Shown: positions 4,292 through 58,081 of the stretch, piece after piece
How the letters are laid out: the number at the start of each line of letters is the position of its first letter
Position numbering within the stretch: position 1 is the stretch's first letter
Assembly: GCA_964016885.1 (NCBI GenBank)
Contig: OZ024742.1
Coordinates: forward strand, 332,568,001-332,632,000
DNA from: Eledone cirrhosa
Taxonomy: Eukaryota
DNA: 64,000 nt
Direction of reading: 5' to 3'
Notes under the pieces: generated by a model
Database searches by the model: none
Told to the model about the DNA's origin: nothing
The model's input: the letters and a program-made list of their open reading frames with translations, nothing else
Made by a program: the position numbers and the translations under genes

Positions 4292-4481
4292 AGGAAAAGG
4301 TATGACCCCGACGGCAGAGCTCTAGCCGTTTCTACGGCTATTTCAGTCCAGAAATAGCCGTAGAAACTGCTTGAGCTCTGCCGTCGGGGTCATACCTTTT
4401 GCTATTACCCACTCTACTACCCTAAGTATTAAGTACTCTGGTGCGTTATGGTCCATCTGGTTCCTTACCACAATTCCTTCG
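4292..4481 (+). mobile_element. Palindromic HHR-derived (TA)n-inserted element, family A
   Basis: ggaaaaggtatgaccccgacggcagagctc...gagctctgccgtcggggtcatacctttt hairpin plus tail attacccactctactaccc...ccttcg. Many copies in the window. Confidence 0.8.
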
Positions 4482-4759
4482 TATATATATATATATATAT
4501 ATATATATATATAAAAACGCATAGAGAGCAGATCTCAAAACTTAAGTTCACAGAGGAGATGACATAGGAAGGTAACACCTGAAGGGAGGCTGTGTTGGAA
4601 ACGACCCTTCCACCCCAAAGAAACATGGGAAAACGGACGTAAAATGACGATGATGATGATGATGATGTTAAAAATATATTGAGACACACATGTTCCCACA
4701 TACAAATATATACACAATTATCGATTTATAACGGACAGACAAAGCCAGAAATTTCTACG

Positions 4760-4922
4760 ATAATGTTATAGTTCATTGGTATTTATTTTATAGATCTAAG
4801 ATGTGAAAATCAATAAAAGAAGACTCTGATGGCCAGTTTTCAGCTTAGAGAACGTAATTGGATGTAACAAAATACGGTAAGTCATTTAGTTCGGTGCTCT
4901 CCCGTTTCTAACACTCCGCCAT
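4760..4922 (-). mobile_element. Degenerate tRNA-derived SINE
   Basis: Similar to the reverse complement of the SINE at 45471-45660 (ggtatttattttatagatc...ctaacactccgcc). Confidence 0.5.
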
Positions 4923-5234
4923 CTTAATACATATACAAAACTGTTGTTGTTGGATCTCCGTTACTTACGACGACGAATGTTCCAGTTGGTTCGATAAAGG
5001 GAACATACTGCTCGGGAAATTAACGTAAAAGGCCCTATCATGCCACATACAGGTGCACATTTAATGTGGTTTACAGGGAGATCCCCTTGACATGGTGTTT
5101 GACAAGGTTGACCTATTCAATTGACACTGAGTAGACTAGAGTAAATGGTATGGTGTTATTCGAGTGATAGAACTAAACCGACACTCGGAACCGATTATCA
5201 TTGAGTTAATATCTCGCTGCCGCCAGTATTCATT

Positions 5235-5375
5235 TTCAGCTAATTGAGGCGGAGCAACGTGAAATAACGTGTCTTGTTCAAGGACACAACGCGCGGTATA
5301 AGAATTGAACTCACGAACTCATGACCTTGCGGACTTGAATACACAATCCTAATTACTAAGCATCGCGCTTTCACA
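5235..5375 (-). mobile_element. tRNA-derived SINE head (second family)
   Basis: Minus-strand B-box-like gagttcaattc followed by gttgtgtccttgaacaagacac. Related to 15426-15720 and 51395-51600. Confidence 0.55.
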
Positions 5376-5451
5376 ACATATCCTGTAATAAAATAATAAA
5401 TACTACAGACAGTAGACACAAGTAAATTTAATGAAATCTTATTCCGCTTAC

Positions 5452-7442
5452 CTGTACCAATCTAATCCGTTGTGATAATGTCGGTCAAAGAAATGGGGTT
5501 CCGGACCAGGTGCTCGTACATCCGGGTGTAATCGTAAGAATTCCAGCACGGCACGAGTCCCACCCTTTTTGACACCTATAATCAGAGCCTGAGGCATTTT
5601 CCGGCTAGTGTGAGGTATCAACACCTTTTGAGAGTGGTGGTCGCCCCCCGAGTTTGTGACGTCTAATGATTGTGGCACAACACTGATGTGGTGACCCGGG
5701 TACAAAGGAAATAAAGAAGAAGAAGAAGAAGAAGAAGAAGAAGAAGTAGAAGAAGAAGAAGAAGAAGCTAATGATGTTGATGACGATGATGACGGTAACA
5801 CGGATGCTGGTGAATTTGATTGATTTGACAGTTGCAAAAGAGATGGCGGGGCCGTGTACTTTTTTAAGGTGGCTGTCCGAGGGAAGATAAGGGACAATAA
5901 AGATGGCGCCCGAGAAGTGTAGAATGATGAATTATTGAAGCGTGAAACAGAGAATATAGATTCAGAATGAGTGTCTACCTTAGGAGACAGGTAGTTGGGT
6001 AGCATATCCACCTTGGTAAAATCGTTGATCCGATCATTTCGTACATCCATATCATTAGAATTAACATTTTTAACTGACTCAACGTTGTTCAATGTATGAA
6101 TCAACCATCTTGAATCTTCTGGAGCAGGTGATAAGTTGCTGGTATGACGGGTACCGTCGAGAACATTGCTGTTTTGTCGAGATTGCAGCTGTGGTTGTTG
6201 TTGGTGGTGGTGTTGTAAGTGTTGGTGCTTCTGATGTTGTTTGTGTAGATGGTTTGATCTGTTTGTTATGAGGTTTGATGTAACAGTATACCGGGTGTTG
6301 TTTAACTGGGACCTCACAGCCTTTAATGTTTCGTTGTCACTAGGATCATAGTCGCGATAAATGTCACTCCTATTAAAAGTCTCGATAGAGCCGAATTGGT
6401 TTTGAATTTTTAAACGGCCAATCCGGGTTTTAATATTGACGTCACTGGTGACATTGTGTACACGATGTCTATGATCAGCTGCATTGACCCAATGGTCTAA
6501 ACTGCTACCGTATAAACGACGGGGTTTACGTTTCGAAACCTGCCTTAGACTCCATCTTCTACGCCGACGATGGTGATGGTTATGTGATCGCTTGTAGCGT
6601 TTTTTCTTCCCATGTTTACGCTCGTTGAAAATAGGAACAAGAGTTGGCAATTTAGATGGAGGTGCTCTATCTCGATGTTGTAGAGACACTGTTGTAACAT
6701 TTGACCGTATGTGATGTGCCTGGTGGTGGCTGATAGTGTAATTCACATTGCTGTTACTCACATGGGTTAGTGTGCTTGAATTAGTAGTTGTAGTAGTTGT
6801 AGTAAACGGTGCACTCGGCACCTGTCGAGTATTTGTTGAGGATATCCAGGATTGTTCACCTCCTCTGATATGGAAGGTTCCCGACTTCCCGAATATATCC
6901 CTAAATAATTCCTGCTTGCCATTTCGTCGATCGTTGTTGATGTTGTTATTGCCATCCACTGTGTTTTCCACACTGTCAGCCTCGCGGTCGTTTCGTTCCC
7001 CATTATCCCCGCCTTTTTTAGATGTTGAAATAATAGCACTCCGGTGAGGTCTTTTATGTTTAGCACTCCTGGGGTAGGACTGGAAGTTTTTCACACTGTT
7101 GCTATCACCTAAATGGTTCTTCGATTCTCTGTGACGATTTTGTTTGATGGCGGAATAGAGAATTTGTTTGAAGTTCCTCTTGAAATCCCGCCTGTTCAAC
7201 CCTGTTGAAATCAGTTGGTTTTGTGAAGAACGCATAGAAGGCGGGGTAGGGTCTACCCATTGCCACCACCGAGAGTTGTTTTTTCTCTCTAGATTGAAAA
7301 AGGGGTCGACATTGACCGGAGAGGGCTGGCCCAGGTTAGCTGAAGTTTCAAATGGAAGTGCGTTGCTGATAACGGCACAGCAGATTATCAAAAAGCTGTA
7401 TATGACAACTGTGCAAAATCCGATGCTTCTAACCAAAAACAT
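5452..7442 (-). CDS. HS3ST: Heparan sulfate glucosamine 3-O-sulfotransferase, first coding exon (partial CDS; continues beyond window start)
   Basis: N-terminal hydrophobic anchor, then catalytic-domain start [51 protein letters not shown] containing the 5'-PSB motif KGGTRA. Ends at donor AG|GTAAG (intron starts 5451), the intron position used in the HS3ST2/3/4/6-type genes. Acceptor cctaacAG at 7529-7530. Confidence 0.93.
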
Positions 7443-56063: not shown

Positions 56064-56111
56064 ATAGCCTCAGAAACGGCTGACCTCTGCCGTCGGGGTC
56101 ATACTTTTTCC
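56064..56111 (+). mobile_element. Family A fragment
   Basis: atagcctcagaaacggctgacctctgccgtcggggtcatactttttcc. Confidence 0.7.
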
Positions 56112-57357
56112 TATATATATATATATATATATATATATATATATATATGTGTGTATATATTTGGTTGTGTGTGTGCGTGTGTGTGTATATATATATATAT
56201 GTTTGTGTATGTACATGCATCATTACATACAGAGATTTAATGCTTATTTTCATTGATTATTTGCTCCAGGAACTTGTTGAGTGCTCTAAATCAGCTATAA
56301 ACATTTATACCCTTATCTACTTATTTATTTATTTATTATTTTCCGTATCCCCAACTATTTGTTTACCCCTTTCACCTTTTAATTTTTATATATATATATA
56401 ATATTTATGTATTTTCTTATATATATATATATATATATATATATATATATATATATATATATAAAAATATATATATATATTTAACAGTTAAACAAGGTTC
56501 AATGAATACATCTAATAATGAGTTTTACACACACACACACATGTGTGTATAAGTATTTATATGTATGTGTGTGTGTATATGTATGTATATATATATATAT
56601 ATATATATATATATATATATATATATATATATATACATATGTATGTATGTATGTATGTGTATGTATATGTGTATGTATATGTATGTGTATATGTATGTGT
56701 GTATGTATTTATCTATATGTATGTATGTGTATGTGTAATTGTGTGTATTGCTTACCACGTGTGTTTGTTCATTTATTTGTTTCTGTATCGCTGTCAACTT
56801 TATAATAATTTTTAGATTTATTTTTATTCTTATGTGACGGCCTATATGGACGTCATTTGTTTTTTATTTTATTATTATATTTTTTCTTATTAATTGTGTG
56901 TGTGCGTATGTAGGTGTGTGTACATATATCTATATTTGTGTGTGCGTATGTATGCGTGTATATATGTGTGTATGTATGCGTGTGTATGTATGCGTGCGTA
57001 TGTACGTGTGTATATATGTATGATTATGTGAGTATATATATATAGGTGTATATATATGTGTATATATATATATATATACATATGGGTGTGTGTATGTGTA
57101 TGTATGGATATGTGGATATATATGTGTATGTATGTATATGTATGTGTATGTGAATTTGTACGTGTATGAATATGTGTATGTATGTGTATGTATATATATA
57201 TGTGTATGTATATATGTGTGTATGTATATATGTGTGTGTGTGTGTGTGCATGTGTGTTTATTTTTCCTTTCCTTCTTTCTTTTCCAGCCTCACTTTTCAT
57301 ATAGATTATATTTTTGTTTTTAAAATCCAATGTCAATAAATACACCAGGATTTTTTA

Positions 57358-57409
57358 ATTCTGATATTGAAAGCAAAATTTGATTGCTTTCAAGAAACCA
57401 CAGGTAAAT
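57358..57409 (+). ncRNA. Degenerate HHR (G8 missing); 3' half inverted at 55631-55698
   Basis: AUU-CUGAU-A-UUGAAAGCAA loop UUGCUUUCAA-GAAA-CC aca GG-UA-AAU. Confidence 0.6.
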
Positions 57410-57560
57410 GTAATAATTACCTTATGTTGTTTATTACATAACTATTAAGCTCTGTAACCTACATAGAGCACTCTTTTTTCCTGAACCTTTCCGACGGAAT
57501 TACTTCATTCACATATATATATATATATATATATATATATATATATATATATATATATAT

Positions 57561-57936
57561 ACGATATTAAACAAATGGAAACTATATTTATAAAACCATA
57601 TTTATTTCGTTATATATATTTCTGGGATATCATATTAAAAATATGGTATGCCTTCCTCAGACAAAATACAATACATAAGCTGTTTTATAAATAATTTTGA
57701 CATACATTTATAAAACAGCTTATGTAACTTATGTATTGTATTTTGTCTGAGGATGGCATACCATATTTTTAATATGATATCCCAGAAATATATATAACGA
57801 AATAAATATGGTTTTATAAATATAGTTTCCATTTGTTTAATATCGTAAACCTACTCCAGAAACTGTTGAGTGCTTTTATATCAGTTATAAAATATTTACT
57901 CGTTGTAACCCAACAATTTTAAATATAACTTTTGCA
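57561..57936 (+). mobile_element. Non-coding pLTR with fold-back inversion carrying mirror HHRs
   Basis: 57561-57678 is inverted at ~57728-57846. Confidence 0.85.
57739..57804 (+). ncRNA. Type-I HHR (intact); mirror copy at 57603-57668 (-)
   Basis: UAUUUUGU-CUGAGGA-UGG...CCA-GAAA-UAUAUA-UA-ACGAAAUA. Confidence 0.85.
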
Positions 57937-58001
57937 TATATATATATATATATATATATATATATATATATATATATATATATATATATATATATATATA
58001 T

Positions 58002-58081
58002 AACGAAGGAAATGTGGTAAGGAACCAGAGAATTAGCCGTCGAAACGGCTTGAGCTCTGCCGTCAGGGTCATACTTGTTCC
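58002..58081. mobile_element. Rearranged family A fragment
   Basis: Inverted tail fused to gaattagccgtcgaaacggcttgagctctgccgtc. Confidence 0.7.

Follow-up and report, generated by a model that had tools for sequence, protein, structure and literature searches.

A stretch of 64,000 nucleotides from Eledone cirrhosa (contig OZ024742.1, positions 332,568,001 to 332,632,000; hereafter the window) carries short palindromes built from half of a hammerhead ribozyme and set in runs of (TA)n, and the question which it raises is how such palindromes are made. A preliminary description had proposed that a nascent cDNA snaps back at the ribozyme hairpin and copies itself or, alternatively, that a palindromic derivative is mobilised as a unit. 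In this study, we report that each copy is, on sequence grounds, the 3' end of a Penelope-like element (PLE) of the Hydra type that has inserted in (TA)n, and that the palindromes are probably the shortest insertions of this element, for which the two target strands would prime separate cDNAs that run to one common stop and are joined head to head.

Positions within the element are numbered in its RNA sense from the G of GTCGAAA, taken as 0; the ribozyme site lies after +25, end A (TTCC) is +42 and end B is +122. Exact-pattern searches were performed genome-wide (genome size 3.0 Gb), and an unselected sample of 1.26 Mb was made up of 120 evenly spaced 10-kb stretches and the window. Junctions were analysed in 87 unique head-to-head pairs (174 arm ends), de-duplicated by sequence, of which 21 came from the unselected sample and the rest from 70 end-B-anchored and 30 end-A-anchored loci; this set omits pairs more than 40 nt apart and very long arms. 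Exact short palindromes numbered 12,582 in the genome against none with a reversed-pattern control, and are therefore not due to chance. Exact junctions amounted to 29,898 between end B and TA and 19,880 between end A and TA, again with no control matches. In the unselected sample there were 21 close pairs together with 43 arms standing alone, and extrapolation from it puts the family in the order of magnitude of 100,000 copies.

Every arm terminates either at end A or at end B, the latter adding an 80-nt tail, and both ends adjoin TA. An arm of each kind was present in 76 of the 87 close pairs, and in 18 of the 21 in the unselected sample. The 5' ends of the arms cluster at a common stop, here called the wall, with 118 of the 174 located at -20 to -8 and four further upstream. 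Partner-less arms joined to TA gave 1,439 raw matches at the wall, compared with 376 at -4 to +1. The template following both ends reads TAT (TTCC/TATT in the tailed arms, TCGC/TATC in the full unit L348), and the TAT after the start points (L348:2115-2123 and 5822-5830) is a 3-nt match to the TA target. By analogy with the biochemistry of the anole PLE (PMC11167929), A and B are very probably internal reverse-transcription starts, with both target strands cut and extended. The TTCC/TATA point that had been considered as the terminus of a mobile unit does recur among the copies, as one of these two fixed starts and not as such a terminus. Cleavage by the ribozyme was also considered as the main truncation point and was rejected, only 9 of the 174 arm ends lying at +25 to +27.

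Upstream walking from longer copies reached reverse transcriptase (RT) and GIY-YIG sequence. Inverted pairs range from approximately 110 bp to 4 kb, and arm lengths form a continuum up to PLE coding sequence. One locus (L094) consists of TA, the tail, an inverted arm of 215 nt that contains the complete ribozyme, a 2-kb sense arm carrying RT and endonuclease sequence, end A and TA. Another (L348) is a full unit of 3,707 bp, arranged as pseudo-long terminal repeat (pLTR), tail, open reading frame (ORF), 3' untranslated region, pLTR and tail, with the ORF frameshifted. The YRDD motif of RT and the IY..YIG of the endonuclease were recognised by eye in L348, L349 and L351, the copies seen being all broken; 1,099 homologues of approximately 700 amino acids were found, and a Pfam search with both ORF pieces returned no match. 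Marks of the Hydra clade (RWK, DKT, CxCx5C, CxxC, CxH and the lack of CCHH) are defined in PMC8557442. Here, L348 and L350 carry HSDKTG (DKT) and LRWR, with R for K in RWK; the linker CNCPDRSSC (CxCx5C), CNLC (CxxC) and CKH (CxH) are present, and CCHH was not seen by eye. Partial tandem pLTRs, an inverted truncated copy and a tail at one end, which make up the PLE architecture, are present as well. The element thus resembles the Hydra-clade PLEs described by Craig et al. 2021 (PMC8557442) in its single ORF with RT and C-terminal GIY-YIG, its (TA)n target, its DKT, linker, CxxC and CxH motifs without CCHH, its pLTR hammerhead, its inverted 5'-truncated copy and its tail at one end. It differs from them in unit length (3.7 kb, against generally less than 3 kb for Hydra), in tail length (80 nt, against 30-40 nt for PLEs), in the RWR, in the U3-A8 core of its ribozyme and in its very many insertions of approximately 190 bp with a fixed axis. 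A non-LTR retrozyme was rejected as the identity of the element, the short copies being head-to-head half ribozymes and not head-to-tail complete units. The family itself may already be listed in the supplements of PMC8557442.

The arm represents the 3' half of a hammerhead of type I with a GUC site, an assignment which rests on motif, folding and pair counts and which bears out the preliminary description. The text of the arm (stem II, GAAA, CGGC, loop, GCCG, UC, GGGGUC) is as described there, except that the CGGC/GCCG helix is to be placed as stem III of the type I ribozyme. Longer copies keep the ribozyme 5' half, which reads UUGANAA. The pattern of the intact ribozyme, with A or G allowed at position 8, was matched by 1,823 arms, and all 100 of those listed have A. 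In 76 intact copies, taken mostly from pattern-selected loci and with some positions fixed by the search pattern, positions 3 and 8 were U-A in 62, C-A in 12, U-G in one, A-A in one and C-G in none; pairing was found at 3-8 in 62 of 75 and at 10.1-11.1 in 75 of 75, and the GUC site in 75 of 76. The CUGANGA half that had been expected is thus absent in its literal form (0/76), its place being taken by UUGANAA. A search for CUGANGA with a spacer of 10-40 nt gave 47 matches; the cores in those inspected (30) were due to chance, to junctions or to other families. This spacer is too short for the true loop, which was covered by the intact-pattern search. The hammerhead fold lay 0.8-4.8 kcal/mol above the minimum in all six copies folded, in stem IIa, G-C and A-U pairs replace each other between subfamilies A and B, and the type I hammerhead is the predicted fold of intact U3-A8 copies. 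The U3-A8 covariant is known from Schistosoma PLEs (PMC4209133). Copies with a C3-A8 mismatch (12/76; L114, L120, L121, L123 and L126) are, judged from their sequence, likely to be impaired in cleavage. That they belong to abundant subfamily types is a hint that mobility may not depend on cleavage. In Rfam searches, no hammerhead was among the matches listed for the window (150 of 302), which were mostly TA-repeat miRNA models, and none was found in the intact copy L106; an inverted-repeat finder run on the window returned TA runs only.

The preliminary description had also placed the axis of the palindromes in the stem II loop. The true loop II spans approximately -42 to -8, with the hairpin centre at about -25, so the wall lies off its centre; the axes in the window, at -19 to -8, are at the 3' edge of the loop, and not at the hairpin centre, the exception being the copy at 14871 (-44). 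The wall sits near the A of a conserved TYAGT, which is kept in subfamilies A and B despite their differing loops. Palindromes with a tail are likewise made by two other PLE families, C and D, in which the axis precedes an intact CUGAUGA, mostly by 64-82 nt in family C (24 of 44 copies) and by no more than approximately 10 nt in the palindromes of family D seen (L066, L067, L143, L233 and L289). The axis is family-specific and independent of the stem II hairpin, since in families C and D it lies upstream of the hammerhead. Family C occurs in the window at approximately 57560-57930 and 3955-4275, with a canonical CUGANGA hammerhead and the tail-plus-palindrome structure, and a conserved ATCCAG, which lies about 72 nt before the core, is near the start of many of its copies. 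Family D is found at approximately 32180-34620 of the window, where a broken RT/endonuclease ORF (32301-33609) lies between inverted pLTRs with canonical hammerheads; its extension lengths are inflated by palindrome-palindrome matching and were not used as a count.

A pathway can be proposed on this basis. An endonuclease would cut (TA)n on both strands, one cut end would prime at A and the other at B, and the resulting separate cDNAs would both run to the wall, probably the capped 5' end of the RNA, 57 and 137 nt away. The cDNA ends would then be trimmed by a few bases and fused by end-joining, sometimes after brief fold-back synthesis, and read-through RNA would give rise to the long copies. 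The palindromes would be dead-end by-products and not mobile units.

That one cDNA folds back and copies itself, as suggested in the preliminary description and, as self-priming, in PMC3846280, would account for arms that match in subfamily at approximately 99.8%, for recurrent centres with loops of 3-6 nt and for short fold-back inserts. A tail-less cDNA, however, cannot make a tail by this route, and a tailed cDNA cannot make an arm that reaches further than itself, yet the A arm extended at least 10 nt further upstream than the B arm in 22 of the 76 A+B pairs, or about 19 without doubtful parses (L206, L261 and L304 in this direction; L263, L333 and L336 in the reverse). The B arm reached further in seven pairs, 47 were within 9 nt, and some tail arms stop inside the tail. 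The commonest centre carried the tail on the short arm 1038 times and on the long arm 1057 times (p=0.69 for 50:50), the latter pattern having four more fixed letters than the former. Loop centres differ among copies, as had been noted before, and perfect zero-loop centres occur; 27 of the 76 junctions are overlaps, 19 are blunt and 30 have inserts. Among all loci examined, two (L179 and L295) join an arm of family A head to head with an arm of family C. Symmetric pairing of two identical cDNA ends would leave the same text as fold-back, so it is orientation and asymmetry, not the centres alone, that decide, and both, together with the chimeras, the off-centre axis, which in families C and D lies beyond the ribozyme, and the exact stop at end A which fold-back leaves unexplained, oppose it. 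Fold-back is largely refuted as the main route, for which we consider it improbable, and survives as a transient step during end joining that can leave short inserts. Several observations nevertheless weigh against two separately primed cDNAs: arms of mixed subfamilies gave only eight matches (seven of them real) against 1,346 and 3,365 for matched arms, a rarity that is predicted by one-template models too and that fits one RNA or a strong cis preference; about half of the 50 listed centres have hairpin-compatible loops of 3-6 nt; some junction inserts are fold-back copies of an arm; and the position of -19 assigned to 22 arm ends is in part an artefact of the reference. In L333, L309 and L279, the arms differ at subfamily-diagnostic sites and possibly come from two RNAs; mixed arms are too few to serve as a test for the use of two RNAs. 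Insertion of longer or perfect palindromes, revised later in the DNA by central deletion or loop flipping, would likewise yield variable centres in both orientations, and deletions between two GCCGTC repeats were indeed seen (L261 and L263). In 28 pairs, however, differences per 50 nt were 1.11 between arms, 1.06 between copies of the same subfamily and 4.19 among all copies; arm-arm divergence equals that between same-subfamily copies, which excludes a single master palindrome, gives no sign of homogenisation of the arms, and agrees with the earlier suggestion that palindromes are produced repeatedly de novo. With partner-less arms piling up at the same wall, and with one-sided losses of more than 100 nt needed in some cases (L268 and L327), later revision is quite improbable. 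Inverted ends, short length, the TA context and the common end point would suit a miniature inverted-repeat transposable element (MITE), that is, a palindromic derivative which a DNA transposase moves in one piece; a target-site duplication would be hidden within the TA runs. The tail nevertheless lies on one side only, outside the inverted repeat, in 76 of the 87 pairs, centres vary copy by copy within a non-uniform interior, palindromes with arms matched in subfamily are made separately by at least six subfamily types, and the arm-length continuum extends into PLE coding sequence; the earlier preference for a retroelement product is upheld, and a transposase-borne unit appears extremely unlikely.

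The nature of the wall is a separate question. We presume that the TYAGT at this position resembles an initiator, and the sequence evidence slightly favours a transcription start at its A, inside hammerhead loop II. With such a start, the ordinary mRNA would be without the ribozyme 5' half and would offer only 57 and 137 nt of template. Arms with a non-template G before -15 numbered 146 and those joined directly to TA 428 (25% with G), compared with a background of 6.4% for G after TATATAT in the genome sample. In a hand tally of the listings, the extra G was present in 16 of 79 arms at the wall and in 4 of 88 at the -4 to +1 control (p=0.003), and position -16 of paired arms, where it was not T, held G in 20, C in 10 and A in four of 100 strands (hand tally). 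Full-length L1 copies carry a cap-derived extra G (PMC11702581), and the extra G here is like that at the capped end of L1; an internal TATA-less promoter is described for Drosophila Penelope (PMC2377424). Other results speak against a start at the wall: in a matched control, the extra G at -10 (31 against 125, or 20%) was not different from that at -15 (p=0.17); the G:C ratio before -15 (146:21) equals background and is uninformative as a cap test; and inspection by eye revealed no match to the consensus of a downstream promoter element. On a post hoc subfamily split, the only comparison that separates the two sites, GAAAT types made up 1 of the 31 G cases at -10 and 37 of 100 direct joins, the other 30 G cases being in GAATT subfamilies, in which there may be a second start. 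The wall could instead be a roadblock, such as a bound protein or the tertiary fold of the ribozyme, or an uncapped cut end; this substitution, which concerns the wall step alone and shares two-strand priming with the pathway above, is a possibility to be taken seriously but less than an even one. Subfamilies A and B have the wall at an equal distance from the core of the ribozyme, as a roadblock would have it, and the extra G at the -10 control points the same way. Against a roadblock, RT gets past stems I, III and IIa, which are strong GC stems, and halts in a weak AU stem, and in families C and D the wall has another position with respect to the ribozyme; moreover, the extra G is at background at -4 to +1 and near background at -14 (3 against about 33 direct, among the 100 listed).

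In L1 twin priming, the second target strand primes an inverted cDNA and the two are joined by end-joining, the second priming taking place upstream of the first cDNA, so that nothing is duplicated. In the present element, unlike in L1 twin priming, both cDNAs would cover the same stretch. For the Poseidon element PAc of Anolis, Frangieh et al. 2024 (PMC11167929) described in vitro cutting and extension of both strands, with two start sites bounding the tail; inverted products are not treated in the main text of that paper. PAc is similar to the element described here in its two fixed starts just 3' of a hammerhead, its AT-rich target and its use of both strands, whereas its starts lie inside the ORF and are non-homologous to the target (PMC11167929), and those found here lie approximately 90-170 nt before the ORF and are followed by TAT. 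Cercyon of Schistosoma (Cervera and de la Pena 2014, PMC4209133) shares the U3-A8 core, a palindromic loop 3 and opposite-strand ribozyme pairs 100-700 bp apart, but in the present element helix III is a full stem of 4-5 bp, and an internal loop interrupts a long helix II. Penelope of Adineta (Arkhipova et al. 2013, PMC3846280) shows the same head-to-head inverted pLTR, junction palindrome and optional tail; self-priming was read there from few copies, whereas the present counts speak for two cDNAs, each primed. Already in print are the truncated inverted copies, the tails on one side, the targeting of (TA)n, the hammerheads of PLEs, the U3-A8 variant and the palindromes at junctions. Fixed-axis mini-palindromes, an orientation test and a cap mark at a PLE axis were not found in a literature search that covered few subscription papers.

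The origin of the inverted ends and one-sided tails of PLEs is stated to be open in PMC8557442 and PMC11167929. The palindromes are an unusual dominant product of a known element class and bear on this mechanism: as a single genome holds young junctions by the tens of thousands, the models become separable by counting, and two primed cDNAs are favoured. Two predictions follow from this pathway, a capped RNA start at an exact position and a specific product in vitro. A tentative extension, to which we give slightly less than even weight, is that inverted ends and tails of PLEs in general arise from two-strand priming at the two internal start sites; with these sites near the 5' end of a capped mRNA, a short palindrome would be the default product and its axis would mark the transcription start, which here would fall inside the hammerhead and disable it in the mRNA. 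If true, palindrome axes would map PLE promoters from genome sequence alone. The palindromes can also be mislabelled as MITEs, and the intact U3-A8 hammerhead was missed by Rfam.

Within the window, the family is present at all eight places described, each bounded by (TA)n, which comprise four palindromes, two lopsided pairs and two single arms. Seven of these had been listed as palindromes, and the designation holds for those at 4293, 14871, 24517 and 47257, three of which carry the 80-nt tail on one side only, the one at 14871 being without it. In the first, a tail-less arm ending at end A (4293..4344, minus strand) reaches -9 and is followed by a tailed arm from -15, with the hammerhead 3' half and the 80-nt tail to end B (4345..4482, plus strand). 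The palindrome at 14871..15050 is older, both of its arms ending at A and its axis at -44 leaving the whole loop II in place. The third consists of a tailed arm reaching -15 (24517..24655, minus) and a tail-less arm from -10 (24658..24710, plus), with a 15-nt end-A stub (24727..24741, minus) as a separate insertion in the next TA run, and the fourth of a tail-less arm reaching -11 (47257..47310, minus) and a tailed arm from -15 (47311..47448, plus). The remaining three are not palindromes. At 10402..10503 (minus), a tailed arm stops just beyond the ribozyme cleavage site and meets an end-A arm of only 6 nt, read from the sequence (10502..10507, plus), with 2 nt common to both; at 58002..58028 (minus), a 27-nt tail stub with end B is joined to a 53-nt end-A arm from -10 (58029..58081, plus), which holds sequence absent from the stub and is thus not a copy of it; and at 56064..56111 (plus), a single end-A arm from -7 has TA on both sides. 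The eighth place (46637..46779, minus) holds one arm without a partner, which belongs to sister subfamily B and includes the whole of a type I hammerhead. The 5' core of this copy had been described as decayed; the UUGAUAA at 46741-46735 is the family norm, and the copy is counted as intact because UUGANAA, the U3-A8 variant, is the family's own core form.

Several other elements were noted in the window. A 638-amino-acid frame at 26387-28303 (plus), with a fragment at 30195-30311 (minus), belongs to another Hydra-like PLE that is about 40% identical to family A, and a fragment of a different PLE lineage lies at 23371-23781 (plus), with a longer relative in inverted arrangement in L356. A compact canonical hammerhead at 61756 (plus) represents a repeated family E, which was found in about a dozen other loci. 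Remnants of the long interspersed nuclear element type, with endonuclease and RT pieces recognised by eye, are located at 41229-43873 (minus). A large open frame at 5448-7454 (minus) ends in a sulfotransferase-like motif and is probably a host exon, presumably resembling heparan sulfate 3-O-sulfotransferase.

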